Positions 22,623-64,000 of a stretch of DNA of 64,000 bases are shown piece by piece. The position numbers and the translations under genes are program-made. The notes beneath the pieces were generated by a model. The model saw nothing but the letters and a program-made list of their open reading frames with translations. It had not been told where the DNA came from and searched no databases. How positions within the stretch are numbered: position 1 is the first letter of the stretch; each line of letters begins with the position of its first letter. Source of the DNA: an uncultured archaeon. Its GTDB lineage: Archaea > Aenigmatarchaeota > Aenigmatarchaeia > GW2011-AR5 > JAHLMP01. The stretch covers positions 9,588 through 73,587 of the forward strand of contig CAYRXY010000003.1 in the NCBI GenBank assembly GCA_964428495.1, in the 5' to 3' direction.

Positions 22623-23048
22623 TTGATAGATATGAAAGCGATAACTCCGGTAATTGCTATTGTACTCTTACTAGCAATAACAATTTCGATAGTAGCTTTT
22701 TCAATAACATATTTTCAGAGATTAACATCATCTGGACTTAAGAAAAGTACAGAGCAAATGGAAAATATCGAATATGGCAAGAATGTTGTTATAGATTCTG
22801 TAAGTACCAGTGGAAATCTAAAAGTCTATTTGAGATGGATTGGACCAAAATCGGTAAATGCAAGTGAGATTGCACTGTATGTAGATGGAAATGCAGTTGA
22901 ATGCAATCTCAAAGATCTCAGTGGAAACACTCTTTCAGAACTTTCTTCATCAAACCAGCTCGGTTATTGCAATACAACACTTACAACATGCAATAGTGTA
23001 AAGATAACTACTCCGACAAACATAGATGAAAGAAGTTGCAAATCGTGA
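22623..23048 (+). CDS. Putative archaeal type-IV-pilin-like protein (class III signal peptide)
   Basis: N-terminus MKAITPVIAIVLLLAITISIVAFSITYF resembles the prepilin/DUF361 N-terminal helix. 141 aa. Confidence 0.5.
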   Translation: MIDMKAITPVIAIVLLLAITISIVAFSITYFQRLTSSGLKKSTEQMENIEYGKNVVIDSVSTSGNLKVYLRWIGPKSVNASEIALYVDGNAVECNLKDLSGNTLSELSSSNQLGYCNTTLTTCNSVKITTPTNIDERSCKS

Positions 23049-36121: not shown

Positions 36122-36412
36122 ATGAAGGGTTTAAGTTTACCAATAAATGCAATTGTTATAATCGCAATTGGAATAATTGTTCTTCTTGCATTGACCATGT
36201 TTTTCACAAGTCAATTTTCCAATGCATCATCTAGTATGTCTAAAACCGAAGAAATTCAAAGAGCATGTGCTACTTGGAGAATGACCAACTGTGATGATAA
36301 TTATTGGAATAATAAAAATATATTTAACAGTAAAAATATGTCCGCTATTTGTACATCTGCAGGTTATCCGAATGATAAAGCCCTTTGTAAGGATATTTGT
36401 GGTTGTAGCTAA
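36122..36412 (+). CDS. Prepilin-like protein with class III signal peptide and Cys-rich C-terminus (paralog A)
   Basis: MKGLSLPINAIVIIAIGIIVLLAL, with a KG|L cleavage-type motif. C-terminal 50 aa contain 8 Cys (CATWRMTNCDD...CTSAGYPNDKALCKDICGCS). Confidence 0.55.
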   Translation: MKGLSLPINAIVIIAIGIIVLLALTMFFTSQFSNASSSMSKTEEIQRACATWRMTNCDDNYWNNKNIFNSKNMSAICTSAGYPNDKALCKDICGCS

Positions 36413-37499: not shown

Positions 37500-37796
37500 A
37501 TGAAAGGTACAAGTCTACCGGTAAATTCTATAGTAATAATAGCATTGGCAGTAATTGTACTTGTTGCGATCGCCGTTTGGTTTTCGTCAGAAATGCTTCA
37601 CGGACAGAAACAGGTTAACGCCGAGCAGGCATGGGTAAGTGCGTGCAATCAATGGAAAGCTACAAACTGTGATGCAGGACATTTTAACAACACATTAACA
37701 GGATTTCCAGGTATTTCTACTATAAAGGAAGCATGTAAAGCTGCAAGAGGATCAGATGATGCTGACCTATGTAAAAAGCTTTGTTGTGGAGAGTAA
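37500..37796 (+). CDS. Prepilin-like protein with class III signal peptide and Cys-rich C-terminus (paralog B)
   Basis: MKGTSLPVNSIVIIALAVIVLVAIAVWF. C-terminus CNQWKATNCDAGHF...CKAARGSDDADLCKKLCCGE. Clear paralog of 36122-36412. Confidence 0.55.
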   Translation: MKGTSLPVNSIVIIALAVIVLVAIAVWFSSEMLHGQKQVNAEQAWVSACNQWKATNCDAGHFNNTLTGFPGISTIKEACKAARGSDDADLCKKLCCGE

Positions 37797-40918: not shown

Positions 40919-40996
40919 TTTTTACACCTTTAATGGGTGTAAAGTGTCAGATGTATTCTATAAATAATAAGTATGCAATAAAATAAAATTTTATTT

Positions 40997-44306: not shown

Positions 44307-46346
44307 TCAGGACAAATTCACAGATCCAAATATCATTAATGTAAAGCCGAGAGTTAGAAAGTACATAATGGAGCCGAACCAAAGAATATGAAATATTAAA
44401 TTGTTCTTTCCGATTTTATCCTCACCATTTTGAATCCCGTTTATTAGAGTCCCTACGATATAGGAAGTTAGAATGAAATATATAGAAGACACGAGCTGAA
44501 ATTCCCCTTGTGTAATTTCTAGTTTACCCCACGGTAGAATTAACATGCTAGAAGCATATGTTCCCATAAGTTCTTGTCCGGTAAACTTTGTTGCTATTTG
44601 ATTTATTATATTTATCATAAGGTTTGAAAGCGTTACAATAACACCAGAAACTAATGGAGTCAAAATGTATCCCTGAAGCTTTAGAGCACTGACTATATCC
44701 TCTAAGAGATCGCTTATTCTTTCTTGTGTCTGATGTACATCATAGAGATATCTAGAAATACTCAACATCGCAGAGGCTGCAGCCTGTACACCTTTAGACG
44801 AAACATCAGCAACAGTCCTCATTATTGAATTGATTAGAGTAGATGGATAATAAAGAATAGCACCATATTCTGGATCAAATATAGCCTGTCGAAAAGTCAT
44901 TCCAAGTCTTTTTATGTTTCTAAGAATAATAACAAAGAATTTTTTTATGCTAAGGTTACCTATTGCGTGTATCAGCCTTTCTATTGCAACCTCTAATGGC
45001 ATTCCGGTAGAAAGATAATTTCCAAGTTGAAATAGAGCCTCTGTGAATTCTTCTTCTATTTTCCTTATTTCATTTCTCAATTCTATTCTTTGGAACGATG
45101 AAAGATAAAAATAAGATATTGATCCAACAATAAGACCAAAAGAAATTACTATAGATTGAAATAGATTATTCTCATCGGCCGCTGTAGCATTTATATAGAG
45201 ATGAGAACCGAAAATTATGAAAGGTAAAGCAACCAAAATTGAAAATGGTAGGACGGGAACAAAGTATTTCTTTTTTCCAATTCTTAAGGCAAAGGTCCCT
45301 TCTGGCGGCATATCAGGATGATGAACCGGTCTTATCTCACTAAACGTTGTCGGTCTTCTAGAAAGAATTTCAGAAACAAAAAACATAAGTGCAATTGGGA
45401 GAATTCCATCAAAACCTATGAATAGTATGGATGATTTTATCTTCATAAATATACCCAATACAGGAAATAGAACCATTCCTATGACTGGCAATAGAATTCC
45501 AAGAGCATGAAGAAGCATCACAGGTATTTTAAGTTCTTGTGAATAATGCTTGGCTTTTTCACTTGTTCCATCAAGCACTATCTTAACAGCTTCATCCAGC
45601 ATCTTTAGTCTTCTTTCCTCGGGTTGTGCTAATGCATTCCTTAGTGTTTGAACTGCCTCTATTATATACCGCTCTTCCTTCCATCTAGACAAATATTTCA
45701 TTAGTGCTTCATCAATATTTTCATACTTACCAACTTCAACATCCCATAAAATTTTTCTCATATCATTTGCTAATGGCCCTACGAGATTTCGAGCAGCGAA
45801 ATCAACTGCTCCTTCAAGATTTGGCGACTGTCTTAAATAAACAACCATATACAAAATAAGGAATGGAATTTCTGTTCCTATCTTAGTCATGTATTTTCTT
45901 TTATAGGTTATAGGATAGGTGTACAGATAGTAAGAGAACAACAATTCAAATAATATTATTATAAGTGCATGATTCAACGTAATACCAAGCTTCAGTATGT
46001 TTGATACTACCACAACAACTAAGGTTAAAATAATTGAACTTAAAAGAAAGAGCATAGCAAGAGATGTTGCACCTTCAGGTGTAATCTTCATCTTGGTTAT
46101 CTTTATTGCATCTATCATCTTCTTTTTAGTTTTTTCATCTGGTTGAACTTTCATTATCTTCTCTGCAAATTCACAAGCCTTCTCGTAAACTGTGTCCTTC
46201 TTCTTTAACATCTCTTCCTCTTCTAAAAAGAGCTTGTATTCTCGAGAAGCAAACTTATATGCAGGGACTTCTAACTTAACGTCTGATTTTTTCTTCTCCT
46301 TTTTCTTTTTGAAGAACTTCTTAAACCAATCAAGCATGTTTACCAC
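44307..46346 (-). CDS. Polytopic membrane protein of type IV pilus/archaellum assembly platform type (FlaJ/TadC-like)
   Basis: 679 aa with several TM clusters separated by two large cytoplasmic loops. Overlaps the upstream secretion ATPase by 17 nt. Confidence 0.6.
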   Translation of the reverse strand: MVNMLDWFKKFFKKKKEKKKSDVKLEVPAYKFASREYKLFLEEEEMLKKKDTVYEKACEFAEKIMKVQPDEKTKKKMIDAIKITKMKITPEGATSLAMLFLLSSIILTLVVVVVSNILKLGITLNHALIIILFELLFSYYLYTYPITYKRKYMTKIGTEIPFLILYMVVYLRQSPNLEGAVDFAARNLVGPLANDMRKILWDVEVGKYENIDEALMKYLSRWKEERYIIEAVQTLRNALAQPEERRLKMLDEAVKIVLDGTSEKAKHYSQELKIPVMLLHALGILLPVIGMVLFPVLGIFMKIKSSILFIGFDGILPIALMFFVSEILSRRPTTFSEIRPVHHPDMPPEGTFALRIGKKKYFVPVLPFSILVALPFIIFGSHLYINATAADENNLFQSIVISFGLIVGSISYFYLSSFQRIELRNEIRKIEEEFTEALFQLGNYLSTGMPLEVAIERLIHAIGNLSIKKFFVIILRNIKRLGMTFRQAIFDPEYGAILYYPSTLINSIMRTVADVSSKGVQAAASAMLSISRYLYDVHQTQERISDLLEDIVSALKLQGYILTPLVSGVIVTLSNLMINIINQIATKFTGQELMGTYASSMLILPWGKLEITQGEFQLVSSIYFILTSYIVGTLINGIQNGEDKIGKNNLIFHILWFGSIMYFLTLGFTLMIFGSVNLS

Positions 46347-48564: not shown

Positions 48565-48614
48565 AATTATCTCTTATAGTTTTTCCATTTATAATTTGAA
48601 AAGAAAAAAGAAAA

Positions 48615-49580
48615 TCATCTAACTAAGAATGCCCACCAAGGTCTTCTTATGTGAATTACATCTCCTGTAACTACGTCGGCACTACTTTCCACTGGAACGT
48701 TAACGTTAAACACACCGAGAAATTTTCCTGGTTTCAATGCTCTTACCTTGTAAACGACTTTGTTCCCTTCACTATCTATCTCAATTCGTTCAAGCTTCTT
48801 AAATTTGACTTGTTGCCTTATCTTGTTTATTACATCATCTGGAAGCGCCTTTATTTGAGCCGTAACGTTTCTTTCTGTTCGCACTACAACTGTTCCGTTT
48901 TCTATTTCGATATTTCTTCTCGTCACGACTGTTAGATTTCCTATTCTCATTTCAACTTCCCCCTTACTCTCGTTCACTGTCATATTCACTACTCTTTCTC
49001 GTATCCTCGCTCTAATTCTTGCTAACCTTGCAGGAATAGCTGTCTCGTTTGTCATATTTTTCATTCTTAACCATGCAGAAATTCTTGCTTTTCTAGGATT
49101 AATCACGAACCTTTCTATACCCTCTGTGTGATTAAGCGCATTTTCCACTTCAGTCTCATTTCCTGTTTTCACAATAGATATCTCAGTATTAGGAGCTATT
49201 ATGTGAATCTCCTTAGTATGATTTTCATTATTCTGACTAATTTCTATCACTGCCCTTGGAGTTGTTATGTATGTTTCCTTTGTTTCATTAGAGATTACCA
49301 TCGTTCTGTTTACCCCTCTACTACTCATAGAAATGATTTTCGACCCGTTAACAATCTCTCTAGTTATGTTAACCTTTCCCTCTGGTGTTTTTATTTGAAT
49401 CAATTTTGTACCGTTAATATCGACAACAGTTTTGTTCTTAAGTAAGTGGGATAACGCAACTGGTCTCATCTTGTTCATTATGTGAAGAGTCCCCGGTGCT
49501 GCGTTCTGACTCTGTGGAAATACTGCAAAGCCCACTGAAGCTACTAACAGAACTGATAATAAAATCAATAGTTTCTTCAT
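48615..49580 (-). CDS. Secreted N-glycosylation-sequon-rich protein, possibly pilus-associated
   Basis: Signal peptide MKKLLILLSVLLVASVGFAVF. More than 20 N-x-S/T sequons. Sits between the secretion ATPase and the ParA-like gene. Confidence 0.5.
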   Translation of the reverse strand: MKKLLILLSVLLVASVGFAVFPQSQNAAPGTLHIMNKMRPVALSHLLKNKTVVDINGTKLIQIKTPEGKVNITREIVNGSKIISMSSRGVNRTMVISNETKETYITTPRAVIEISQNNENHTKEIHIIAPNTEISIVKTGNETEVENALNHTEGIERFVINPRKARISAWLRMKNMTNETAIPARLARIRARIRERVVNMTVNESKGEVEMRIGNLTVVTRRNIEIENGTVVVRTERNVTAQIKALPDDVINKIRQQVKFKKLERIEIDSEGNKVVYKVRALKPGKFLGVFNVNVPVESSADVVTGDVIHIRRPWWAFLVR

Positions 49581-49584
49581 AGCA

Positions 49585-50325
49585 TCACCTAAACCATCTT
49601 CTTATAAATAAGAACATTGGCTCTTTATATTCTTTTCCTGTGAGTTTGGAGGCTAGTCGGAAAAATGCCACGCTCGCAGGAGCGTACGGATGATATTCAA
49701 CAACAGGTTTCTTTGCTGCCAAACTCCTCAAAACGTTCTTATCAAAAGGTATTTTACCTATCACAGGAGCCCCTAGGGTTGCTTCAACTTCAGCATCCCC
49801 AATCTCGTGTTTCTCCCTCATTACCCTGTTCAAAACTATACCCTTAATCTTCACGCCCATATCCTTGGCTACTTCCACTGTCTTTAATGCATCCGTAACA
49901 TCTGGAAGGTATGGCGATGTCACAACCAGTATTTCATCGCATGCTTCCAACACATTAATTGCCGTCTTATCTAGCCCAGGGGGTGAATCTATTAGAACTT
50001 TTGTATCAAACTCCTTTAGAGCCTGCTTTAGACCTGATGAGTCAATATTAAGATACCTAAGAGAAAGATGAGCTGGAATAAATCTAAGTCCTGTTTCATG
50101 TATATGAAGAGCTTCTAGAAGGGAAAGATTCTGATTAAGAACCTCATGAACCGTTTTATCATAATCAAAGATTCCCAAGTGTAGACCGAAGTTTGGATTT
50201 TTTAGGTCTCCGTCCATAACAACAACTTCCTCTCCAAGCTTGTGCATTGCTAGTCCAAGATTAACAGAAACCGTAGTCTTCCCAACACCTCCTTTACCAG
50301 ATACGATGCCAACGACATTCCTCAT
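49585..50325 (-). CDS. ParA/MinD-family ATPase (TadZ/CpaE-like position)
   Basis: Deviant Walker A GIVSGKGGVGKTTVSVNL. 246 aa. 4-nt overlap with the regulator gene. Confidence 0.85.
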   Translation of the reverse strand: MRNVVGIVSGKGGVGKTTVSVNLGLAMHKLGEEVVVMDGDLKNPNFGLHLGIFDYDKTVHEVLNQNLSLLEALHIHETGLRFIPAHLSLRYLNIDSSGLKQALKEFDTKVLIDSPPGLDKTAINVLEACDEILVVTSPYLPDVTDALKTVEVAKDMGVKIKGIVLNRVMREKHEIGDAEVEATLGAPVIGKIPFDKNVLRSLAAKKPVVEYHPYAPASVAFFRLASKLTGKEYKEPMFLFIRRWFR

Positions 50326-50705
50326 TTTTCAATCACTTTTACTTTATAATATTTTTTCTTTTCTTTTATTTCTCCTTCAAGTATTCCTTGAGATTCCAAA
50401 AATCTTAGATATTGATTTGCACGCGTTCGTGAAATACCAAGCTTCTTTCCAGCTTCTTTGGCTGTCATTGGTTTTTGCTTTAATAAAAATAATATTTGTT
50501 TTTCCTTCTTCGGATTGAGATCGTTCTTACCCTCTTTCAATCTCTTCTCTAAGCGCTCCACACGATGGCCAAGCTCTTTAAGCATTATTACAATTTCCTC
50601 TTTAACCTCTCTTACCTGAATTTTTCTTGGTTCACCAACAAGATTTTTTACCTTCAGTAAATCTTCAGAGACTTCAATCCTTCTCATTTCAATTATTATT
50701 ATCAC
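50322..50705 (-). CDS. Winged-helix transcriptional regulator
   Basis: C-terminal HTH MTAKEAGKKLGISRTRANQYLRFLESQGIL. First gene of the minus-strand pilus-assembly operon. Confidence 0.6.
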   Translation of the reverse strand: MIIIIEMRRIEVSEDLLKVKNLVGEPRKIQVREVKEEIVIMLKELGHRVERLEKRLKEGKNDLNPKKEKQILFLLKQKPMTAKEAGKKLGISRTRANQYLRFLESQGILEGEIKEKKKYYKVKVIEK

Positions 50706-50783
50706 TTAACCTCTTTATAAATTTGATGGCCAACAGTTTTTTAGAAAAATGGCTGAAAATTGCAAATTTTTTGATATATGAAT

Positions 50784-50797
50784 GTGTTTGCAAACAC
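50784..50797. promoter_or_regulatory. Perfect 14-bp palindrome GTGTTTGCAAACAC in a divergent promoter region
   Basis: Lies between the divergent operons (50705 on the minus strand, 50876 on the plus strand). A TATA-like TTATAAAA (50799-50806) follows on the plus strand, and TTTATAAA (50711-50722) on the minus side. Confidence 0.35.
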
Positions 50798-50875
50798 GTT
50801 ATAAAAGCTTATACTTCCCAACACTTATATTCTAATAGACAATTGGCGTCGGTAGTTAACATTAGGTGAAGTTAG

Positions 50876-51910
50876 ATGAAACAAGTAATTTTATTTTCGC
50901 TCTTAGTATTGTTATGTATATTTCCAGCTCAGTCCTTTGGCGGTTCAGTGCAAACGTGGCCAAAAAATGGAATATTAAATACGATCAATGATTTGATCGG
51001 AGGGGTCGTTAACTTTTTTGAAGGAATTGGAAGTAGCATTACGGGTATGATTACAGCAGTTCCAAAGGGTAGTATCCCATCTAGTGGTACAAAAATCCCA
51101 ACCACACCTACTTCACCAGAACCTATGACAACTCTATCTACAACAACGTCTACAAGCACTTCAACGTCTACCACTACATCGATCGCTACAACAACTACCA
51201 TTCCGACAACAAGCACTTCGACAACCACTACAAGCACTGTTGAGACAACTATACCTACAACTACAACCATAGAACCAACCACTACTGTCAATGAAACAAC
51301 GACAACGATCGAACCTAATACAACAACTACAGTGAACGAAACGACAACTACCATCAATGAAACTACTATCCTTCCTGTAGAAGCTCAGACAAAGAATATA
51401 ACTAGTAATGAAACCACTACCACAGTGGAAACGACTACCACGATAAATCAAACCTTGAACAATGCATTAAACCAAAATAATACCCTAAATGAAACAAATA
51501 TCACACTCACTACTCTACCTTCGACAACTAGTACAATCCTGACTACGACTAGTACGATACCGACAACTACAAGCACTCTGGAAACTACAACCGTGCCAAC
51601 AACGTTGGAAACAACAACTACGTTAAATGAAACCGAACTTCCAAACCTTGTGATTGGTGTTGCTATGCCCAAGAAGATAACAAGAGGACAAAAGTTTTCC
51701 ATAACTGTTAGCGTAAACAATCTAGGAGGTCCGGCTTCGGGACTTGATGTATCATTACTGCTTCCGGATGGATTTGAGGTAATAAGTTATGACTCTGATT
51801 GTTCGTCATTATCATATGGTCAAACCTGTTCAGCGTTGTTCGTTGTGAACAGCTCCCTATCTGCATCTCTGGGGGCAAATAATTTTGGTGTGTTGGTGAG
51901 ATATGAATAA
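50876..51910 (+). CDS. Secreted Thr-rich mucin-like protein with C-terminal CARDB/DUF11-like beta-sandwich domain
   Basis: Signal peptide MKQVILFSLLVLLCIFPAQSFG. About 200 aa of T/S/N-rich low complexity (TTTSTSTSTSTTTSIATTTTIPTTSTSTTTT...). C-terminal ITRGQKFSITVSVNNLGGPASGLDVSLLLPDGFEV. Confidence 0.7.
   Translation: MKQVILFSLLVLLCIFPAQSFGGSVQTWPKNGILNTINDLIGGVVNFFEGIGSSITGMITAVPKGSIPSSGTKIPTTPTSPEPMTTLSTTTSTSTSTSTTTSIATTTTIPTTSTSTTTTSTVETTIPTTTTIEPTTTVNETTTTIEPNTTTTVNETTTTINETTILPVEAQTKNITSNETTTTVETTTTINQTLNNALNQNNTLNETNITLTTLPSTTSTILTTTSTIPTTTSTLETTTVPTTLETTTTLNETELPNLVIGVAMPKKITRGQKFSITVSVNNLGGPASGLDVSLLLPDGFEVISYDSDCSSLSYGQTCSALFVVNSSLSASLGANNFGVLVRYE
51100..51620 (+). repeat. Low-complexity ACN-codon (Thr) tract
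   Basis: Repeated acaac/actac motifs encode poly-Thr/Ser. They generate several spurious antisense ORFs (50929-52114). Confidence 0.7.
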
Positions 51911-53969: not shown

Positions 53970-53984
53970 ATACGTGTGAGTAAT

Positions 53985-56900
53985 ATGATAAAAAAAATAA
54001 TATCGGCCGCGATTTTAATGTTATTTATATTATCCACTATAGCCTTTTCTTTACCCATATCTTCATCTTACATAGAATCTGGGAATAGTGCGACAGTTCA
54101 AATGAACTCTGGTTCTGTATTTTATGGAGAGGTTGATGCTGGTCAGGTCGTTTCTTGGAAATATCTGAAGTATCAAATTTCTGGAACTGGTATTACTGCA
54201 CAAGCTATGGTTAATGTTTCTGACTATGAAAACTTTGCCTCTGTAAAAGGTAGTACTGGTTGGTTTTCTATTAACGCAGATGGCGTACTTGATATTAAAG
54301 AATTATCATCAACATTTAACCTTCCATATGCACGATATGCTCGATTCGCAATAAAAGGAACTGGAGGAGCCTGGCAAATTGATCAATCATGGTTAGAAAT
54401 TTCCACCGGTCCTGATGTATTTCAACCAAAAACGTATTCTACTACAGGAACAGAAAAAACAACATTTAATGATGGTGATAATGTTGTAATAAAAGTGAAC
54501 GTTACAGATCCTGATGGGGCATCTGACATAGGTAGTGTATTGATAAACATAACTGATCCAAACGGTGTTTCAAGAGTTATAAATGGAGTAATGAGTGTTG
54601 ACTCTTCTATAAGTTACGGAAAAACGTATAGATATAACTTTTCAACTACAAATGTAAATGGGACTTGGTCCTTTACAATAGTGGCAAAAGATTCTACTGA
54701 AAAAACCGATTCAAAAGCTGGATCCTTTGTTATAGTTGATACACATGCACCAACCATTACTCTAAATTCTCCAGCTAACAATGATTGGACAAACAATAAT
54801 AAACCCACATTCTACTTTACACCTGATGATTATATTGATCCGGTTTTGGATTGTAGTCTTTACATTGATGGAAATGCCTGCGGTTCAACAACTGCAGATA
54901 GAGGACAACAATCAAGTATAACATCTACATGTACATTAACTGTTGGAGCTCACAATTGGTATATCAAATGTACAGATGATAAGGGTAATACCGGCCAATC
55001 ATCAGAAACGTGGACGATAAACATTGACACCACTCCACCAACCTATACTTGGCTTTCTCCATTGAGTGGAAGTTGGTATAAAGATGGAGATTCAATTAGT
55101 ATTGATGTTGATGTTTCTGATGGAACAGGTGTCGGAATAAATGATGGGGAAAATTGTAATGTAGAGATAGATGATTCAACGACATCGTTTACGGGGACAG
55201 TTACTTATAGTAGTGCGACAGGTAAATGTACTGGAACGATAAAGCTGAATAATCCATCAAATCTAGCAGAAGGTTCAAATTCTCATTCGATAACTGTTAG
55301 TGTTCCTGACAAGTTAGATAATGTACAGACATCTTCAGGACTGTTAATTTCGATTGATAATACTCCACCAACGATAACTTATGTAACTCTAAGTGATTAT
55401 GATGTTCAACCGGGGACAACAATCACGGTAACTACGGATGGCTCTGATTCACTTAGTAGCATAAATACTTGTCATGCTTATCTTGATGATGACACAAACT
55501 ATGGAAATGGATATCTAGATGACTTGGGTGAGTTAGGAACCGACTGTAGTGGACCTGTAACATTACCTTCTGTTAGCAACGGAATCTATTATATAGTCGT
55601 TAGACCAGTGGATAATGTGGGTCTTTCAAACACGAAGGCAAGTAGTGCGCTTAAAATCGATTCAACTTCCCCATCTTGTTTAATCAAATCAATAAAAGAA
55701 GTTTCTGGAACTGATTATTCTTATGTAAGTGGAACCACGATATGGTACAATAATGTAAGTAGTGGTTCATTCATGGTCAATGTATCTGCAAGTGACGATC
55801 TTGCAGGAGTAAGTAGGGTGGTGTTTCCTGCTACAACATCATCTGGTACAACCGACTATTCATCGCCATATAACCACACATACACCTGGTCTATTGGTTC
55901 GAGTTATTCCAGTACAGCAAATGTAACGTGTTATGATAAGGCAGAAAATTCCGCTACTACTTCATTTACCATAACTTTAGACAATACTCCTCCATCTGAT
56001 GGTTCAATAACTTACACTGATGGTTACTACACAACAAAGAGCGTTTCCATATCATATTCATTAGGTTCTGATAATGTGGGTGGTGTCGGCCTTAACACTG
56101 CAACTGGTAGGATTGAGAGAAACTCAGCACCACTAAGTGGTGGTGTTTGTGGTTCTTGGTCTGGATGGACAACGCTCTTATATGATTCTGATGGAACTCA
56201 TGTAGATGAAACCGTCCAAGATAATTATTGCTATCAGTATATATACAGAATCTGTGACGAAGTAAGCAATTGTAAAAATTACACTTCTACCAATATCGCT
56301 AAAGTGGATTCCGTATTACCAACAATTTCATATATTGAACCACCGACTGAAACAAACAACAGTATTATTCATGAACCATTCATAGAAGTGAAGGTTTCAA
56401 CAAGCGATGCTGGTGCTGGTGTTGATAAGATTACCATCTACCTCTACAGAGCAGATACAAAAGCCGGACCTTACACACTAAATGCGACCAAGACATTATA
56501 CTACTCTGGTCAAACCTCTGCTTCACTCTTGGCAAACTTCACGGGATTGGGAGATGGATTTTACAAGTTCAACGCAACAGTCTGGGATCAAGCAGGAAAC
56601 AAACAATCAACAATGACAAGAACCGTTTCAATAAGTCTTAACCCAACAAACTTAACAGATCTTTCGTATTCCTGTGAAGATGATTGTGGATGGGGTGAAG
56701 CATGGAACTTCACCGCCAACATCACCGACAAAGACAATAATCAACGGCTGAATCTCACGTTGCAGTTGTTTAATAGATCAGGATCCGGAATGTGGGAAAA
56801 CATCGACTCTAAAATAGTGTACAGCAACGGAGATAGTTTTGCCGAGACATTCTCGTTAGATCCTGCCTGGACTAATATAGATTCTAACAAAACAAGGGAG

Positions 56901-59900
56901 TTTAGATTTATGGCCACTGATAACTGGGATGCTACATTCTATAGCGATCCTATAACTGTCGATGTCAAGAGAGATGATGTGCTGTTAAGTATCACAAAAG
57001 GTATTAATGAAATTGTAAACAGGGATGACAGTACCGACTACTCAAATGTAACACTTGAAGCAAGGTTATACGATGTGGATAAAGACGGATACGTAGCTGG
57101 AGAAAACATAGATTTCTTGTTCTTAAATGCTAATGGTTGGATCAAAATAGGATCGTCCACTACAAATGGAAATGGTTACGCTGAATTTATATGGAACCCA
57201 GATTGTACTATCTCACCATTAGGAGAACATCAATGGAGTGTGAACCATTCAACAAGTTCATTATACAAATTTACATCTAACAGTAGTCAAGTAACAATTA
57301 GAGAAAAGCTTCATGTAACCATTTTACAGCCAACTAATGGTGAAATAGTACATAGAAATAAGATATATCAATACTTACGTGCTAGCATTGCCGATTCTTG
57401 TGGGAATGACTTAACATCTAGCTCTACGATAGATTGGTCAACAGGAGCAAAGGGTCCTAGCGTGGAATGGTCAGTACCAGATCAACTAGGGAATTTCACT
57501 ATAACCGTCAATGGAAGTATTTCTGATTCATTTTATGATCCAGGGGACTCGAGTGTCATCGTGAAAATATTTGGATATTCTAAAACCACCGACTTACAAA
57601 CATATGCTCTATGGTCTCATAACGAAACATCAGCAATTAAAGGCGAACCTGTTAAGATAAATTGCAACGTAAATGATGAAAAAGACTCTCCTATATCTAG
57701 CTATCCGGTGAATTTCTCTGTATTCAATTCCACTGGTTCACTAATCTCATCTTATGTAAACTATACCAATTCATCTGGTGTTGCAACGTGGATATGGAAT
57801 ACAAGTGGAAAATCCGTTGAGACTTACACGATAAAATGTTCAATAGATAATATCGAAGATCCTCAAAACCAACTATATTATAGTATTACTAGCGATTATA
57901 ACCAACTACAGAAGAGCTTTGATGTAAAATATCAAGATCGATTACTCCTTGAAACTGATAATAGCTGGATATATAGAAACAACACGTTTAACCCTCACGT
58001 AGCAACAATAACTGCAAAATTCATGAAATCATATGAGGATATGCAAAGTGGATATATAGAATTCACATATAAGAATGGAACACATATAGCCAGTTGTTCA
58101 GCCGATTCATCAGGTACATGTTCAATAACATACGATGAGTCAGACTCCGCAACTCCTGAGGAATATTTAATAAAAGTGGGTGCTGCAAAAGATCTCGATA
58201 ATTTCCTTGATAAAAATTATACTGCAACATCTAATATATCCATAGAAGTAAGAGGTAAATTAAGTCCTGTAACTTTAATCAAACCAATTTCAGAGGCTAA
58301 ATTCAATAAAACGAACTATATAAACTTTTCTTCATCTGTTGAAGATGAAAACGGTAATGTTGTAAATGCTAATGTTTCATATATTCTTTCTGGAAACAAT
58401 AAAGGTGACTTTAGAATAGTAAAGGACGTATCATCTGAAGAGACTAGATGGAAAATATTTAATGATCTAAAACCTGATTCATACTCAATAACTGTAAATG
58501 CAACAAGACCATATTATACAGGTAGTAGTACGCTTGGTTCGAGGAGTATTTACATTTACGGTTTTGCTAACGTCACGAATCTAACATTAGATTATCCTCT
58601 TTACAATGCACCAACAAAGGTAAGCTGTAAGGTAATTGATAGAGACTCATCTGAGCTTCCAATAAGTAAATATAATGTAAGCTTCTGGTATGAGAAGTTG
58701 GGTATATGGACTCTAATAGGGTCTAATCTGACAGACACCAATGGTACTGCTACGATGTGGTGGATTCCTGATATTGTAGGCACAACCAAACTAAAATGTA
58801 ATATTTCTGATCAATTAAAGATATTTTACTATGCAAATCCTTTAGCAAGTGAAGTGATCAATGACACTGTGTCTGTTGGCGATAACGAATCGCCAGAAAT
58901 TCATTCATTTGAAAAAATTGGAACTACACCGTTAGAGGCAAACCATCAGAGCTTGACATTCAAAGCAAACGTAAGCGATAATGTAGAGATAAGTAGTGTA
59001 CGGGTTGAGATTACCGGAGTTGAGAGTGATATTGTTATCTTAAACCCCGAGTCCATAGATGATAGAGGAAATGGAATTTATTCGATAGTTTATACACCAA
59101 AGAAGGGTGGATTTCACTATGCTACATTGTATGTAAATGACACGACTAACAATACCAACTCCAGTGAATCAATTAGCTTTAATGTAATTGGTACTGCTAA
59201 TGAGAGCATGAGTATTACACCAACCTCCGTAACAACGGATGATAACATAACGAGGGATAATCCTTACAACTTTACGCTAAATATTATTGTCAATAACACA
59301 GGATCATCAGATATTATTAACAATGGAACAATGTACAATGTCAACATGTCTCTTGATCTTCCAACCGGTTTCACAACAAAAAATATAACTAAAATATGTG
59401 AATCCGTTCCTGTTGGTGGAACGTGTGAATGGAACCCTGAAATTCAGGTAACGAATATTGTGGATCTCGGTACAAACACAATAACTATTAATGCTAAATG
59501 GAATAACCCAGATAACAGTATATCGACAGATTCTAAATCAATTTCAGTAGATGTTTTGGAACACCCAGAAATATCTATAGAACCTAACCCAGTAATAGGT
59601 ACAGCTAATCACGGAGAGACGATAGAAATACCTATAAATGTTTCAAACTTTGGAAACACAATTCTATATGCAATAGGTTCTTCCTGTTTAACATATACAT
59701 ATCCACTTAATTGTAGCTACATAACTCCATCGATTCCATATAGTTTAAATAAAAATGATACTCAAAGTGGTAATATTGTTGTTAAAATACCAAAAGGTAC
59801 TGATCCTAAACAGTACGAGTGGAAGCTTAGAATTAATTCAACAAAATATGTAAATAGTTATGGTGAATATGTCTCTTGTACTTCACAAGGATGTTATAAA

Positions 59901-62900
59901 GATATTACCGTAGATGTTAATGTAAATGAGGATAAAAGTTGGAGCATCTCACCTAATAAAACAAATCTTTTAGTTCCTATAGAAGATTATAGATCAATAA
60001 ACATAACATTAAACAATACCGGTAATGTTGATAGAAATTGGACTATTTCCACATCGGGCTGTGGTAACATAATTGGTCTAGTTGTATCTCATCCACAGTC
60101 TATATATGTTCCAAAAATCAGTAGCAAGATCATTCCTATAACCATAGATGCAACAAATGCCGAAAATGGTGGAAATTGCACGATAATTATTTCATTCAGT
60201 AATTCTAGTGCAGAACCACAAGCCAATAGCACGGTGATTAACTTAACTGTAGAGGACACCCCACCTAATTTTAATGTTCAGATTCTTCCATACGATTATA
60301 TAGATATGGGCAAAGAGGATGTTACAATAAACGCAACCGTGGGTGATAATAAATTAGTTATCTATGATGGTATCAATCTTACAAAACCAGACGGATCAAC
60401 TATAGTTCTAGTTGGAAAGAAAAGTGTTAGTCGACCATCTGATACAATGACACATGTCATCTTAAGTTCAGAATTAGACCAGCCAGGAGAATATAAAGTA
60501 AAGGTCTATGCATGGGATAATGCCAATCCAAGTAAATATAATGAAACTATTATAACTTTCCATGTATACCCAACAACATCTTTAGCATTAAAGACTAACT
60601 ATACGTCAACTACTATGTTGAATACTGTAGAAGTAAATGGAATAACAGCAGAGGATTCAAAGACTGTATCAGTTAACGTGACTATTAATAACACAAAGAG
60701 GATTGGAGCTTATAATGTTAATCTAACAGGAATCAATGGTCCATTGAATAAAAAATTCACTTTAACACCATCATCACAATACTACAATAAAATAAAGATA
60801 CCTCCTGTTATAAGTAAGGTATTCAATATAACGATACCCGCAGGTACACCACCTTCAGGCTCTACAGAATACTATGTTACATTCGGAGCTCGATGGGAGA
60901 ATCCGGATGGAACAATTGACTCTACTTCAACCCCCTTCTATATTAAAGTAAACCCGACGAAAATATTAGAGATCACATCCAATTCATCGACCTATACCGT
61001 TCCTCACGCATCAAAGAAAACAATAAATATTACTTTATATTCAAGAGGTAATGCTCCTATCGATAACATAAAATTATCATGTGTACCAGTCGGATTGATA
61101 GATTATTGTAAGAATTTCAGCGTATCTATTACACCATCAAGCACAAGTTTAGGAGCCGGAGAAAAGACAATAGCTAAAATGACATTAAATGTCCCATTCA
61201 CATATCCTCCTGGAGACTATAATATAAAAATCGTTGCAAATTCATCAGACTTAAATGACGTAGTAAGTCTTCCTTTAACTATTCACGTACCTGTAGACAC
61301 AACTTGGAACTTAACTCCAACACAATACAACTTCACAACAGGTAGTGGAAGCTATGGATACTTCTATGTCAACGTTTCATCATACGCAAACGTTAACTTA
61401 AGCTTTACAACATCTTACACCAATCCAAACATAACGGCTTCTGAAACAACCTTCACACTCAAAAAAGGCACACTTCGCCTCCTAAAAATTAATTATACGG
61501 CACCAGAACTTGCTGAGAATGAAAATGAAAGAAATATTACTGGAAATGTAACTGTTTCATGTACTGATTGTGGACCTCTACAAAATCAAATACAATCCTC
61601 CACTCTCAATGCAAACATGAGAGTACTTCCATTCAAGCTTTATATAGAAAATATTGAACCGACTAATGATATAAGAGCTGGAGACGAAATTCAGGCAATA
61701 GTAAATGTTACATTTGCGGGTCAAATCTTAACAGATCCAAAACTCGTAGCATTCAATGCATATATAGGAGATAAACCATGTGAAACTACAAGTGAATTAT
61801 TCAATATAAGTAAATGGAAGGTAAGATTCAAAGCACCAACACTCCCAGACGGGAAGAATTACACGTTGAGAATAGAAGCTATTCAACTACAATACAATGC
61901 AAGAACTCCAAGATATTTCAATTACATCCATTATAAAGACGTGACCCCTCCTAACATAACATCTGTTAAAACGAGCTTCATAGAACCACAAAAACCTGAA
62001 GAAATATACGTTAATGTAACCGACAATGTTAAGGTAGACAAAGTCTGGATAGTAATATACCACAATGGATCCGTATTTGGAAGCTTTAATTTAACTAACC
62101 TTACAACTAACTTCGTAAATTCAAAATGGAAATGGAAATCACCAGCATTAACTCTCCCAGGAGATTATGATGTTGTAATTTATGCAAATGATACTACTGG
62201 TAATATAGCAAACCTAAGTACATGGTTCAGAGTTAATCAAAAGGTTAGAATAGAGGGAATTGTAAAAGATGTTAAAGAAAATCCAGTACCAGTAGAATTA
62301 GGAATTTATAAGAATACAAAAGCTGGAATAGGTTCGTACATGGTTACAAAAATCATGAATCATACTGGAAGTTACAACGTAAGTATACCTAAAGGAAAAT
62401 ATGACATCACGATTAAGGCATTAGGTAATGAATTCACATTCAGAGATGTGAATGTTGAATCCAACTTAACAAATATAACCAGAGTGAGTGATGTTGATCT
62501 AAGTGTTGTAACTTCACAACTACCTCTAGAGGGGGGACAATTACTAGGAGCGATAGGAATTGAACATAACATTTCATATTCATCTGCAGATGTTATCTTG
62601 AACTTTTCATCAGAAAATCTGATTCCAGGAGATCTCGGACTGAAGAATATTGAGGTATATAGATGTGATGATTGGGACTTTGATAATCAAACATGTAATG
62701 GTGAATGGACCAAGGTAGAAAATACTGAGGTTGATGTGGCAAACTTACTCATAAAGGTACCGTCAACAAAGCTTTGTGCATTTGTAATTGTAAAACCAGC
62801 TGTTGCACCTTCTACAGTTACAGTTCCGCCACAGCAACCGACATCACCTGGAGGTGGCAGCACAGGCATATCATCTCAGTTAGAAGAGGCTTTAGAGAAA

Positions 62901-64000
62901 TTAGTTAATCAGAGCCAATTACCACCAATATCAGCAGAAACCGATTTAATTGAGGCGACACTTCATCCAGGAGAATCTAAACTATTCTCGTTATATCTTT
63001 CGAACAATCTCAACAAACCGGTTACGGCCCATATAAAAATACTTGGAAGTATTTGGCAGTTTGTCCAGTTAGAGAAGGATAATGTCACTATACCTGGAGG
63101 TGGTTCTGAATCTGTCCAGATGAAAGTCTACACATTACCAACAACACCTGTAGGAACATATACAGGCGATATCATAATTTCAACAGACAAGTATACAAGA
63201 ACGATACCAATAACGTTGATGGTTGTACCACCTAAAGAAGCTTTACTTGATCTAAAGGTCAATGCAATAACTAAAGAAGTTCCAATTAATGGAAGTTTGA
63301 AATACTATGTAACACTCTATAACTTGGGTACAAAGAAGAGATTTGATGTCACACTAATATACAGGATCAAATCTGCTACAACAGAGGAAATTCTTGATTA
63401 CAAAGAAGAGACTTTGGCAATAGAAACATCTCTTGCATTTGTCAGAGTTTATGATTTGTCTAAAGTAAAGGGAATAGTTCTAGGAAAATACTTTATTGAA
63501 GTAATAGCAAAATATGATAATAAAACAGCTAGTGCAGTAGACATATTCGAAATTAAGAAGCCGTTCTGGACCAAGGAAAGAATTATGTTGCTTGGTATAC
63601 TAGCAGCATTGATAATAAGCGTTTTGGTTGGTTGGAAAGGTAAACAGTACTATGACAAATGGAAGTTAAAGAAGATGAGATACTTACATCCCGTTGATAT
63701 GAAGAGTCTTCCAAAGGGTGAAGTATGGCTCGGTAAATTAGCAGAGATGAATGTAAGAGCTGAATTCAAGATGGATGATTTAACAACTCACGCAATAGTC
63801 GCAGGTGCAACAGGTTCCGGTAAATCTGTTGCTGCAATGGCCATTGCAGAAGAAGTATTGAAACAAGATATTCCTGTTGTCGTATTCGATCCAACAGCAC
63901 AATGGACAGGATTTGTAAGACCATGCAGAGATAAGAAGATGTTATCATTCTACAAGAAGTTTGGTCTAAGAGAGGAAGATGCAAGACCATTCAAAGGTAT
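53985..64000 (+). CDS. Giant surface protein (at least 3,338 aa, 3' end beyond window): signal peptide, many Ig-like/beta-sandwich modules, C-terminal TM helix and cytoplasmic FtsK/HerA-type P-loop ATPase domain
   Basis: Hand translation shows an uninterrupted ORF from ATG 53985 to the window end. Sec signal MIKKIISAAILMLFILSTIAFSLP. Repeated modules are bounded by D-x-T-P-P-T/S linkers. N-x-S/T sequons occur throughout. TM helix IMLLGILAALIISVLVGW (about 63584-63645). Walker A HAIVAGATGSGKSVAAMAIAEEVL...VVVFDPT (63801-63829). Confidence 0.85.
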   Translation, partial: MIKKIISAAILMLFILSTIAFSLPISSSYIESGNSATVQMNSGSVFYGEVDAGQVVSWKYLKYQISGTGITAQAMVNVSDYENFASVKGSTGWFSINADGVLDIKELSSTFNLPYARYARFAIKGTGGAWQIDQSWLEISTGPDVFQPKTYSTTGTEKTTFNDGDNVVIKVNVTDPDGASDIGSVLINITDPNGVSRVINGVMSVDSSISYGKTYRYNFSTTNVNGTWSFTIVAKDSTEKTDSKAGSFVIVDTHAPTITLNSPANNDWTNNNKPTFYFTPDDYIDPVLDCSLYIDGNACGSTTADRGQQSSITSTCTLTVGAHNWYIKCTDDKGNTGQSSETWTINIDTTPPTYTWLSPLSGSWYKDGDSISIDVDVSDGTGVGINDGENCNVEIDDSTTSFTGTVTYSSATGKCTGTIKLNNPSNLAEGSNSHSITVSVPDKLDNVQTSSGLLISIDNTPPTITYVTLSDYDVQPGTTITVTTDGSDSLSSINTCHAYLDDDTNYGNGYLDDLGELGTDCSGPVTLPSVSNGIYYIVVRPVDNVGLSNTKASSALKIDSTSPSCLIKSIKEVSGTDYSYVSGTTIWYNNVSSGSFMVNVSASDDLAGVSRVVFPATTSSGTTDYSSPYNHTYTWSIGSSYSSTANVTCYDKAENSATTSFTITLDNTPPSDGSITYTDGYYTTKSVSISYSLGSDNVGGVGLNTATGRIERNSAPLSGGVCGSWSGWTTLLYDSDGTHVDETVQDNYCYQYIYRICDEVSNCKNYTSTNIAKVDSVLPTISYIEPPTETNNSIIHEPFIEVKVSTSDAGAGVDKITIYLYRADTKAGPYTLNATKTLYYSGQTSASLLANFTGLGDGFYKFNATVWDQAGNKQSTMTRTVSISLNPTNLTDLSYSCEDDCGWGEAWNFTANITDKDNNQRLNLTLQLFNRSGSGMWENIDSKIVYSNGDSFAETFSLDPAWTNIDSNKTREFRFMATDNWDATFYSDPITVDVKRDDVLLSITKGINEIVNRDDSTDYSNVTLEARLYDVDKDGYVAGENIDFLFLNANGWIKIGSSTTNGNGYAEFIWNPDCTISPLGEHQWSVNHSTSSLYKFTSNSSQVTIREKLHVTILQPTNGEIVHRNKIYQYLRASIADSCGNDLTSSSTIDWSTGAKGPSVEWSVPDQLGNFTITVNGSISDSFYDPGDSSVIVKIFGYSKTTDLQTYALWSHNETSAIKGEPVKINCNVNDEKDSPISSYPVNFSVFNSTGSLISSYVNYTNSSGVATWIWNTSGKSVETYTIKCSIDNIEDPQNQLYYSITSDYNQLQKSFDVKYQDRLLLETDNSWIYRNNTFNPHVATITAKFMKSYEDMQSGYIEFTYKNGTHIASCSADSSGTCSITYDESDSATPEEYLIKVGAAKDLDNFLDKNYTATSNISIEVRGKLSPVTLIKPISEAKFNKTNYINFSSSVEDENGNVVNANVSYILSGNNKGDFRIVKDVSSEETRWKIFNDLKPDSYSITVNATRPYYTGSSTLGSRSIYIYGFANVTNLTLDYPLYNAPTKVSCKVIDRDSSELPISKYNVSFWYEKLGIWTLIGSNLTDTNGTATMWWIPDIVGTTKLKCNISDQLKIFYYANPLASEVINDTVSVGDNESPEIHSFEKIGTTPLEANHQSLTFKANVSDNVEISSVRVEITGVESDIVILNPESIDDRGNGIYSIVYTPKKGGFHYATLYVNDTTNNTNSSESISFNVIGTANESMSITPTSVTTDDNITRDNPYNFTLNIIVNNTGSSDIINNGTMYNVNMSLDLPTGFTTKNITKICESVPVGGTCEWNPEIQVTNIVDLGTNTITINAKWNNPDNSISTDSKSISVDVLEHPEISIEPNPVIGTANHGETIEIPINVSNFGNTILYAIGSSCLTYTYPLNCSYITPSIPYSLNKNDTQSGNIVVKIPKGTDPKQYEWKLRINSTKYVNSYGEYVSCTSQGCYKDITVDVNVNEDKSWSISPNKTNLLVPIEDYRSINITLNNTGNVDRNWTISTSGCGNIIGLVVSHPQSIYVPKISSKIIPITIDATNAENGGNCTIIISFSNSSAEPQANSTVINLTVEDTPPNFNVQILPYDYIDMGKEDVTINATVGDNKLVIYDGINLTKPDGSTIVLVGKKSVSRPSDTMTHVILSSELDQPGEYKVKVYAWDNANPSKYNETIITFHVYPTTSLALKTNYTSTTMLNTVEVNGITAEDSKTVSVNVTINNTKRIGAYNVNLTGINGPLNKKFTLTPSSQYYNKIKIPPVISKVFNITIPAGTPPSGSTEYYVTFGARWENPDGTIDSTSTPFYIKVNPTKILEITSNSSTYTVPHASKKTINITLYSRGNAPIDNIKLSCVPVGLIDYCKNFSVSITPSSTSLGAGEKTIAKMTLNVPFTYPPGDYNIKIVANSSDLNDVVSLPLTIHVPVDTTWNLTPTQYNFTTGSGSYGYFYVNVSSYANVNLSFTTSYTNPNITASETTFTLKKGTLRLLKINYTAPELAENENERNITGNVTVSCTDCGPLQNQIQSSTLNANMRVLPFKLYIENIEPTNDIRAGDEIQAIVNVTFAGQILTDPKLVAFNAYIGDKPCETTSELFNISKWKVRFKAPTLPDGKNYTLRIEAIQLQYNARTPRYFNYIHYKDVTPPNITSVKTSFIEPQKPEEIYVNVTDNVKVDKVWIVIYHNGSVFGSFNLTNLTTNFVNSKWKWKSPALTLPGDYDVVIYANDTTGNIANLSTWFRVNQKVRIEGIVKDVKENPVPVELGIYKNTKAGIGSYMVTKIMNHTGSYNVSIPKGKYDITIKALGNEFTFRDVNVESNLTNITRVSDVDLSVVTSQLPLEGGQLLGAIGIEHNISYSSADVILNFSSENLIPGDLGLKNIEVYRCDDWDFDNQTCNGEWTKVENTEVDVANLLIKVPSTKLCAFVIVKPAVAPSTVTVPPQQPTSPGGGSTGISSQLEEALEKLVNQSQLPPISAETDLIEATLHPGESKLFSLYLSNNLNKPVTAHIKILGSIWQFVQLEKDNVTIPGGGSESVQMKVYTLPTTPVGTYTGDIIISTDKYTRTIPITLMVVPPKEALLDLKVNAITKEVPINGSLKYYVTLYNLGTKKRFDVTLIYRIKSATTEEILDYKEETLAIETSLAFVRVYDLSKVKGIVLGKYFIEVIAKYDNKTASAVDIFEIKKPFWTKERIMLLGILAALIISVLVGWKGKQYYDKWKLKKMRYLHPVDMKSLPKGEVWLGKLAEMNVRAEFKMDDLTTHAIVAGATGSGKSVAAMAIAEEVLKQDIPVVVFDPTAQWTGFVRPCRDKKMLSFYKKFGLREEDARPFKG

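Follow-up and report, generated by a model that had tools for sequence, protein, structure and literature searches.

DPANN archaea live attached to hosts, and the means by which they attach and exchange material is an open question. In a 64,000-nucleotide stretch of DNA from an uncultured Aenigmatarchaeota archaeon (contig CAYRXY010000003.1, positions 9,588 to 73,587 of the forward strand; hereafter the window), a pilus-like pair of ATPase and platform genes lies beside a divergent operon for a giant adhesin fused to an ATPase. In the archaeal type IV pilus-like systems described so far, the ATPase is paired with a TadC-like platform as a conserved and semi-autonomous unit, and the fast-evolving pilins are often encoded elsewhere; FleN/MinD is sometimes found in the locus, and adhesins and S-layer-like proteins can adjoin it (PMC4858521, PMC6393860, PMC8407114). 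FleN/MinD proteins are the commonest regulators linked to archaeal pilus loci generally, and their adjacency has already been described (PMC4858521). Loci with FlaI/TadC plus "dark-matter" pilins are known from DPANN archaea (PMC6393860), and a FlaI/FlaJ-like or type IV pilus-like pair has been reported for DPANN archaea and Aenigmarchaeota (PMC6393860, PMC8407114, PMC6642349). The other closest counterpart is the SPEARE proteins of Nanohaloarchaeota; Hamm et al. 2019 describe them and mention similar sequences in Aenigmarchaeota (PMC6642349), and Reva et al. 2023 reinterpret them as giant adhesins with a VirB4/TraG-like ATPase and a coiled coil (PMC10266531).

Both parts of the window locus belong to these known kinds. 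Modestly new are the partner set that recurs with the giant-ATPase module and the module's physical linkage, in this locus, to a pilus motor. We conclude, with a probability of about 0.7, that two separately conserved DPANN cell-surface (host-contact) systems have been juxtaposed here in one shallow Aenigmatarchaeota lineage; taken singly, each is kept across many lineages. This archaeon has two candidate systems for contact next to each other: one is a pilus-like motor, the other a SPEARE-type giant adhesin equipped with a HerA-like pump. Calling of open reading frames (ORFs) recovered all eight ORFs of a first-pass annotation of this DNA, made from the sequence without database searches, with unchanged coordinates and with the 170-bp intergenic region between the two arms (TM, transmembrane; aa, amino acids; wHTH, winged helix-turn-helix):

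44307..46346, minus strand: TadC/FlaJ-like polytopic platform protein, 679 aa, about eight TM segments (T2SSF in orthologues, ATPase adjacency, TM estimate)
46330..48564, minus strand: FlaI/TadA/GspE-family secretion/assembly ATPase, 744 aa (T2SSE, PDB matches, conserved motifs)
48565..48614, minus strand: spacer of 50 nt, an oligo-T tract followed by TATA-like AAATTATAAAT (read from the sequence)
48615..49580, minus strand: secreted sequon-rich protein, 321 aa, no known domain (signal peptide, sequon count)
49585..50325, minus strand: archaeal MinD/FleN-family ATPase, 246 aa, deviant Walker A KGGVGKTT (TIGR01969)
50322..50705, minus strand: winged-helix regulator (TrmB/ArsR-like, hereafter wHTH), 127 aa (Pfam TrmB, HTH_24, HTH_5)
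50706..50875, no strand: divergent intergenic region, 170 bp (TATA-like boxes, palindrome)
50876..51910, plus strand: secreted Thr-rich protein, 344 aa, with a C-terminal CARDB/NPCBM_assoc-like domain (composition, Pfam)
51903..53969, plus strand: 688-aa surface protein with a Cys-rich C-terminus (N-terminus MNKG, then VSSVIAAVILASVIAV; composition)
53985..64000, plus strand: giant SPEARE-type protein running past the window end, 3,338 aa within the window (Pfam, HerA match)

The conclusion is carried by comparison with related loci. We called and clustered ORFs within 10-kb flanks at 80 species-level loci with an orthologous pilus ATPase, all on metagenome-assembled genome (MAG) and metagenome contigs that are phylogenetically non-independent. 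A scan of metagenome contigs with an alignment of the giant-ATPase family gave at least 564 relatives, from which 80 loci were kept and, with three others, made up 83 giant-ATPase loci, again with 10-kb flanks. The absence is reciprocal: the giant module occurs at 0 of the 80 pilus loci, and pilus ATPase or TadC genes lie within 10 kb at 0 of the 83 giant-ATPase loci. Apart from a match to the Cys-rich segment in one locus (L071), homologues of the 321-aa, Thr-rich, 688-aa and giant proteins were found beside none of the 80 ATPase genes. The window arrangement, wHTH-MinD-secreted protein-ATPase-TadC, is kept in L084 (ATPase 84% identical), where the divergent arm encodes a 195-aa protein together with a 688-aa protein homologue; L082 (ATPase 75% identical) lacks the arrangement. 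Since the adjacency is confined to this narrow lineage, the locus is probably not one machine with its cargo. The first-pass annotation had seen one functional module here, an assembly machine together with its secreted and filament substrates, and had proposed checking whether the plus-strand genes always accompany the machinery; their absence from the 80 orthologous pilus loci speaks largely against such a module. The survey corrects a tempting but unsupported reading in which a pilus machine exports the plus-strand proteins. Most of the annotation's assignments of single components hold.

The neighbours usual for the pilus ATPase in Aenigmatarchaeota are of another sort. On its divergent side a coiled-coil protein, c4, stands at position -1 in 44 of the 80 loci and another, c3, occupies position -2 in 46. 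Further upstream come the genes of three or four small polytopic membrane proteins (c0), and runs of pilin-like proteins starting with MK[GA] and a hydrophobic stretch often lie downstream. All of these are missing from the window locus, where their places are taken by the wHTH-MinD-secreted protein arm and the divergent giant-adhesin operon.

The ATPase and the TadC/FlaJ-like platform protein are a genuine archaeal type IV pilus-like assembly core, and profile searches upheld their earlier assignment to the FlaI/TadA and FlaJ/TadC families. The ATPase matches T2SSE (PF00437) with 57.4 bits against a Pfam cutoff of 24.9, and its best match among solved structures is Archaeoglobus afGspE (2OAP; 8e-30, 107 bits), followed by FlaI (4e-19, 72 bits) and CpaF (3e-18). 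Its homologues come almost all from MAGs of Candidatus Aenigmatarchaeota (DPANN) and are 51-75% identical over the full 744 aa; at the 80 loci the identity is 51-72%. Among 73 Aenigmatarchaeota homologues the Walker A, Asp box, Walker B and His box are all conserved, and so is an N-terminal extension of about 280 aa that has no Pfam match and in which Cys94 and Cys144 are more than 90% conserved. The pair resembles described archaeal type IV pilus-like systems in its ATPase and platform and in the MinD within the locus; the extension, conserved in the phylum, sets the ATPase apart from them. The 679-aa protein itself scores only 20.3 bits against T2SSF, under the Pfam cutoff of 25.2, and a TadC family profile gave no meaningful match among PDB sequences, so its place in the platform family is assigned through its orthologues, 19 of 28 of which match T2SSF (best E = 1.4e-10). 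The two genes are adjacent in 67 of the 80 species-level loci, nearly all of them from Aenigmatarchaeota.

Inteins are present in several of the ATPase homologues (P0023, P0071, P0113, P0115 and P0119). In three loci (L003, L005 and L006) two TadC-like genes flank the ATPase gene, as in the euryarchaeal clade 1 and clade 2 systems.

The giant protein was completed from another contig, L088, which overlaps the window from 62548 to 64000 at 99.8% identity and carries a partial protein (P0121) that the C-terminal 533 aa of the giant retrieve at 100% identity. At its full length of 3,586 aa it begins with a Sec-type signal peptide; about 3,170 aa of ectodomain follow, then a TM segment (at about 3199-3217), a P-loop ATPase and a coiled-coil tail. 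The ectodomain has immunoglobulin (Ig)-like, CARDB and macroglobulin-like domains, with matches to Big_13, NPCBM_assoc, MG2 and Big_3, and contains 111 sequons against 57 expected. The ATPase, placed on the cytoplasmic side by the topology, carries Walker A GATGSGKS, encoded near the window end, and Walker B FDEVH; its Pfam matches are DUF87 (39.8 bits), HerA_C (28.8) and ResIII (27.8), and its best PDB sequence match is HerA 4d2i. An AlphaFold model of a 728-aa homologue, P0127 (mean predicted local distance difference test score 76.5), has two beta-sandwich domains and a TM helix besides the ATPase and a helical (coiled-coil) tail modelled at helices 658-727; its ATPase part matches the hexameric translocase HerA 4d2i with E = 3e-11. 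Nanohaloarchaeal homologues were retrieved at E = 1e-41 to 1e-45 (P0155, P0156 and P0161); P0155 is encoded downstream of, and next to, the gene for the 9,409-aa giant of Ca. Nanohalococcus occultus, and P0161 is AQV86_02330 of SG9. The giant is a SPEARE-type protein and not a pilus substrate, and its description in the first-pass annotation as an adhesin-ATPase holds for both the Ig-like ectodomain and the DUF87/HerA-like ATPase.

With the SPEARE proteins the giant shares the Sec signal, the Ig-like ectodomain, one TM segment close to the C-terminus, the DUF87/HerA-like ATPase and the coiled coil. It differs from them in length (3,586 against 5,998-9,409 aa), in coming from an Aenigmatarchaeote, in the lack of any detected laminin-G, protease or toxin-like domain, and in its setting, preceded by the Thr-rich and Cys-rich 688-aa genes and adjoining a pilus ATPase/TadC pair. 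With HerA and the FtsK-HerA pumps, such as VirB4 and the crenarchaeal Ced ATPase, it shares Walker A, Walker B and a HerA-like fold, and CedD of the Ced DNA-import system is the top NCBIfam match of the truncated giant ATPase domain. It differs from HerA in being a fusion in which a giant ectodomain and a TM segment precede the ATPase, with no NurA, Mre11 or Rad50 partner among the neighbours examined. Among the partner genes examined there was no match to a Ced or type IV secretion system (T4SS) component, and the scores are far under every equivalog cutoff. The putative secretion system of Makarova 2015 (arCOG01314/02884) was also considered as the identity of the giant module and rejected, as that system is without a HerA-like component.

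Beyond the window end, three genes are tightly packed behind the giant gene (L088, 2185-5437; a 14-nt overlap, then spacers of 1 and 0 nt). The first encodes a 305-aa protein with a signal peptide, an Ig-like domain, a TM segment and a coiled coil; the next two encode cytoplasmic coiled-coil proteins of 437 and 339 aa with a weak FlaC_arch-like match. The Ig-TM-coiled-coil protein has a tail similar to the last approximately 50 residues of the ATPase protein (E about 1e-3), which hints at a common binding partner. We collapsed the 83 giant-ATPase loci to 24 clusters at 80% identity of the ATPase tail, 15 of which have at least 6 kb of downstream DNA. Within these 15 clusters the coiled-coil protein CC1 was found in 15, the Ig-TM-coiled-coil protein in 10 and a MinD of about 252 aa in 9. 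The ATPase-bearing ORF is at least 2,500 aa long in 14 of the 16 clusters with enough upstream DNA, and it often fills the whole 10-kb flank. In a library of 1.84 billion proteins (50%-identity representatives), the giant-ATPase family has 543 members at E <= 1e-30. Among the best 147 of these 543 the median length is 2,202 aa and the maximum 7,878 aa. Most of the best-scoring members exceed 1,000 aa, and nearly all of the best members have the conserved block at or close to the C-terminus. These sequence comparisons suggest that giant-ATPase proteins are common and have a recurrent partner set; what looked like a giant orphan protein becomes a multi-protein module open to testing. The partner set (CC1, Ig-TM-coiled-coil protein and MinD) is not discussed in the sections of PMC6642349 and PMC10266531 on which we draw.

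The module also exists in a split variant (L086 type), with a surface protein of 1,900-2,500 aa, a small wHTH protein, three small secreted or anchored proteins and an ATPase protein of 720-730 aa. In one clade of giant-ATPase loci (L086, L089, L091-L102, L105 and L119) the module's MinD gene is followed, about seven genes further on, by a Peptidase_A24 (prepilin peptidase) gene, and the conserved genes in between include those for ribosomal protein L16 and a sugar epimerase.

The two plus-strand proteins encoded before the giant are, as had been proposed, secreted or surface proteins. Thr makes up 27% of the Thr-rich protein and 45% of its residues 61-250, and the C-terminal domain is beta-sandwich-like (NPCBM_assoc, E = 8e-4; DUF11, E = 1e-3). 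In the L084 counterpart only this domain is conserved, at 43% identity; the linker there is shorter, is not Thr-rich and has many N-x-S/T sequons. The linker evolves freely. The 688-aa protein has 25 of its 28 Cys within the last 170 residues. Its MNKG and hydrophobic stretch are conserved in the L084 orthologue, and its central ectodomain recurs, at about 50% identity across phyla, in many surface proteins of archaea whose N-terminal anchors are of other kinds. It is possible that this protein is a "giant pilin", as its N-terminus, class-III-like or a signal anchor, would allow. A metagenome protein of 845 aa from JGI (P0173) joins an N-terminal wHTH domain to a TM segment and a 688-aa-type ectodomain, and could represent a gene-fusion link between the regulator and the surface-protein family or a gene-calling artefact.

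On the minus strand, a wHTH regulator and a MinD-family ATPase do precede the ATPase/TadC pair, as the first-pass annotation had it. Its placing of the MinD in a TadZ/CpaE-like position, and with that its reading of the locus as a Tad arrangement, did not survive the profile comparison: the protein passes the archaeal MinD model of NCBIfam (TIGR01969; 209.7 bits, cutoff 201.75) and falls far below the CpaE-related model (TIGR03815; 41 bits, cutoff 154). TadZ/CpaE carries a receiver-like N-terminal domain, and the 246 aa of the window protein, an archaeal MinD core only, leave no room for one. In its MinD/ParA-type ATPase, TadA-family ATPase and T2SSF platform the locus does resemble the bacterial Tad/Flp pilus (TadZ/CpaE, TadA/CpaF, TadB/TadC). 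It differs in having one long platform protein in place of TadB and TadC, in having no secretin (RcpA), Flp pilin or TadV among the window ORFs examined, and in that MinD is not a stable neighbour of the ATPase in its relatives. True membership of the Tad family was rejected.

Within 10 kb of the pilus ATPase, MinD and wHTH genes were found in only two or three of the 80 loci (L066, L011 and, weakly, L002). In Aenigmatarchaeota MinD is thus rare beside the pilus ATPase and frequent in giant-ATPase modules. The window MinD is 78% identical to the copy in L084 and 57% identical to that in L066. The wHTH protein matches TrmB (31 bits), HTH_24 and HTH_5 in Pfam and has a 121-aa, 75% identical orthologue in L084; similarity to the wHTH proteins of the L086-type giant loci was undetectable. 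The third protein of this arm, of 321 aa, has a signal-peptide-like N-terminus and 16 N-glycosylation sequons against 3.4 expected. It has no Pfam or NCBIfam match, and its sole detected homologue, 35% identical, is in L084. Going by this distribution of sequences, MinD and wHTH would belong at least as plausibly to the giant-ATPase module as to the pilus core, and the wHTH-MinD-321-aa arm may serve both systems.

The minus-strand genes had been thought to overlap throughout by 4-17 nt, as befits one transcription unit. The overlap stands for two junctions. The wHTH and MinD genes overlap by 4 nt, and the ATPase and TadC genes overlap by 17 nt if the latter starts at its GTG and by 8 nt if it starts at the ATG at 46337, the start chosen in the L084 and L085 gene calls and likely the true one. 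The other two junctions are spacers, of 4 nt between the MinD and 321-aa genes and of 50 nt between the 321-aa and ATPase genes, where AAATTATAAAT lies 27 nt upstream of the ATPase ATG. The 50-nt spacer may contain a candidate terminator and a separate ATPase promoter, and the pilus core probably has a promoter of its own. TATA-like motifs surveyed in front of the ATPase gene in 60 loci did not discriminate in such AT-rich DNA, and the suggestion of a separate promoter accordingly comes from the window sequence itself. On the plus strand the Thr-rich and 688-aa genes overlap by 8 nt, a 15-nt spacer separates the latter from the giant gene, and the two genes are translationally coupled to the giant's operon. 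The transcription units spoken of here are those that we infer. Within the 170-bp divergent region TATA-like boxes point both ways, and a perfect 14-bp palindrome, GTGTTTGCAAACAC, lies at its centre (50784-50797), with no second copy in the window at 0 mismatches. As a candidate operator it could serve the wHTH protein encoded next to it; for the L084 intergenic region nothing comparable was reported. TATA-like TTTATAAA stands about 30 nt upstream of 50687, and the ATG at 50687 is likely the wHTH start, which would imply a leaderless transcript.

If two systems are juxtaposed here, as we think, the hexameric ATPase of the first would drive the platform, which, judging from the protein families, would lift processed pilins with class III signals from the membrane into a filament. 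The candidate pilins encoded at 22623, 36122 and 37500 would be its substrates, and the prepilin peptidase would have to be encoded elsewhere. The operon of the second would comprise the Thr-rich, 688-aa and giant genes, followed by those for the 305-aa Ig-TM-coiled-coil protein and the 437-aa and 339-aa coiled-coil proteins. The glycosylated ectodomain of the giant would reach and bind the host cell, and its cytoplasmic HerA/VirB4-like ATPase would oligomerise at the membrane, scaffolded by the coiled-coil partners, and either pump a polymer (DNA or protein) or power assembly. The divergent arm of wHTH, MinD and 321-aa secreted protein would most simply be a regulatory and positioning arm shared by the whole locus; MinD is frequent in giant-ATPase modules and rare beside the pilus core.

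Several points weigh against treating the two systems as merely juxtaposed. They share the 170-bp divergent control region, and since this is kept in L084, co-regulation in this lineage is plausible. The 688-aa protein, with its class-III-like N-terminus, is a possible substrate of the pilus machine. In L066, a distant relative, an orthologous wHTH-MinD pair (49% and 57% identity, its MinD being the closest outside the sister locus) is encoded 3.5 kb upstream of the pilus ATPase, a hint of a real link between MinD and the pilus. With the MinDs of giant-ATPase modules the window MinD shares just 35-42% identity, and it may or may not be their orthologue. The 10-kb flanks allow for linkage at greater distance, and the non-independence of the MAG and metagenome loci lowers the weight of their counts. 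The same facts can be taken further, to an integrated Tad-like module in which the minus-strand operon assembles or exports the mucin-like protein, a giant pilin and the giant adhesin. Such a module would account for the adjacent genes with their common intergenic region, for the arrangement kept in L084, for the conserved MNKG and hydrophobic N-terminus of the 688-aa protein and for the wHTH-MinD pair in L066, and FleN/MinD ATPases and adhesins do occur in some archaeal pilus loci (PMC4858521). It is nonetheless unlikely, given that the plus-strand genes and the pilus genes are missing from each other's loci (0 of 80 and 0 of 83), that the giant is equipped with an ordinary Sec-type signal peptide and with a TM anchor, an ATPase and conserved partners of its own, that the N-terminal anchors of the 688-aa homologues are varied and not consistently class III, and that the 50-nt spacer with its oligo-T run and TATA-like box speaks against a single five-gene transcript. 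Rather doubtful, too, is a wider proposal in which the SPEARE-type giant is the centrepiece of a widespread multi-gene DPANN envelope apparatus, made up of the giant-ATPase, CC1, the Ig-TM-coiled-coil protein with the ATPase's C-terminal tail motif and a MinD-type ATPase, and wired through the wHTH/MinD arm to the pilus motor as one co-positioned host-contact organelle.

Two further alternatives concern one half of the locus each. The ATPase and membrane protein could be what is left of an archaellum (FlaI/FlaJ), the annotation that they often receive in DPANN MAGs: JGI calls several of the ATPase homologues "flagellar protein FlaI", the FlaI model is the best NCBIfam match of the ATPase, and FlaG/FlaI/FlaJ are found in most Aenigmarchaeota MAGs (PMC8407114). 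This is highly improbable. The FlaI equivalog (NF058587) gives 143.7 bits against a cutoff of 550, afGspE outscores FlaI in PDB, and the alignment with FlaI begins only at query residue 315, leaving the extension of about 280 aa unmatched. No FlaH-like ATPase was seen among the genes examined, although no search specific for FlaH or archaellin was made; similarly, FlaH, FlaF/G and archaellin were not recognised among the Pfam-searched window genes or the clusters of the 80 loci, where archaellum-specific profiles were not run against all neighbours. With the FlaI model far under its cutoff and afGspE nearer, archaellum membership was rejected. As for how the giant module works, it could be a T4SS-like "straw" in which a VirB4/TraG-like ATPase serves to inject effectors into the host or to exchange DNA with it. 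This has been proposed for nanohaloarchaea (PMC10266531), and NCBIfam matches to CedD, TraB and TraD, weak sub-threshold Pfam matches to T4SS-DNA_transf (19.2 bits) and TrwB_AAD_bind (17.9 bits) and a topology with the ATPase at the cytoplasmic face would suit it. We regard the straw as possible, in a tentative way: the best sequence and fold matches are to HerA, not VirB4 or VirD4, Pfam lists no VirB4 N-terminal domain (PF03135) for P0121 and matches no T4SS component among the conserved partner genes (coiled-coil, Ig-TM and MinD), and each chain has a single TM helix, so that any channel would need oligomerisation.

Outside the locus proper, the window contains three candidate pilins and homologues of the two coiled-coil neighbours usual elsewhere:

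12528..13232, minus strand: c3 coiled-coil homologue (tblastn E = 6.5e-47; 58 of 65 c3 members match)
18847..19239, plus strand: c4 coiled-coil homologue (tblastn E = 4e-29; 51 of 52 c4 members match)
22623..23048, plus strand: candidate archaeal pilin (MKA, then ITPVIAIVLLLAITISIV; motif rule)
36122..36412, plus strand: candidate small pilin, 96 aa (MKG, then LSLPINAIVIIAIG; motif rule)
37500..37796, plus strand: candidate small pilin, 98 aa (MKG, then TSLPVNSIVIIALA; motif rule)

The c3 and c4 homologues, which belong to no Pfam family, lie about 30 kb from the pilus ATPase, c3 at about 33 kb, and this displacement indicates that the locus has been rearranged in the window lineage. Homology of c3 and c4 with CC1 and CC2 was considered and rejected, the matches being weak (E = 1e-5 to 1e-3 in a tiny database) and attributable to coiled-coil composition.

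A class-III-like N-terminus, defined by the rule [KR][GA] plus a hydrophobic stretch, is found in exactly 4 of the 61 window genes. The three prepilin-like genes noticed earlier outside the locus hold up at the level of this motif and gain no above-threshold Pilin_N match. The candidate at 22623 comes nearest, with a sub-threshold Pilin_N match (E = 0.012), a weak match to the c15 pilins and a very weak one to Arch_flagellin (E = 0.07). For the 688-aa protein and the two small MKG proteins Pilin_N gave no match even at E <= 5, and for this reason "pilin" stays a motif-level call. The earlier statement that the window has no prepilin peptidase agrees with our searches within its 64 kb: the multi-TM proteins have other Pfam identities, and tblastn of 12 Aenigmatarchaeota A24 peptidases against the window gave no match better than E = 0.09. 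Peptidase_A24 genes do occur on other Aenigmatarchaeota contigs.

The window as a whole is AT-rich (30-39% GC) and otherwise holds ordinary housekeeping genes and three tRNA genes. Between the TadC gene and a tRNA-Arg gene lies a low-GC (about 0.30) block of 4 kb (40373-44262) that encodes a radical S-adenosylmethionine (SAM)-like protein, a thiamine pyrophosphate-dependent enzyme split into 179 and 190 aa, a SAM methyltransferase and two proteins of 156 and 181 aa without a Pfam match. In L085, an 89% relative, the tRNA-Arg gene directly follows TadC, with a PmbA/TldD pair beyond; the block is a variable island beside a tRNA gene. Elsewhere the window encodes an archaeo-eukaryotic primase/LigD Prim-Pol-like protein (7174-8118, minus strand) and an N6/N4 DNA methyltransferase (26743-27867, plus strand). 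A full-length serpin with an N-terminal hydrophobic anchor or signal is encoded at 15979-17229 on the plus strand of this DPANN genome (PF00079, E = 1.7e-126).

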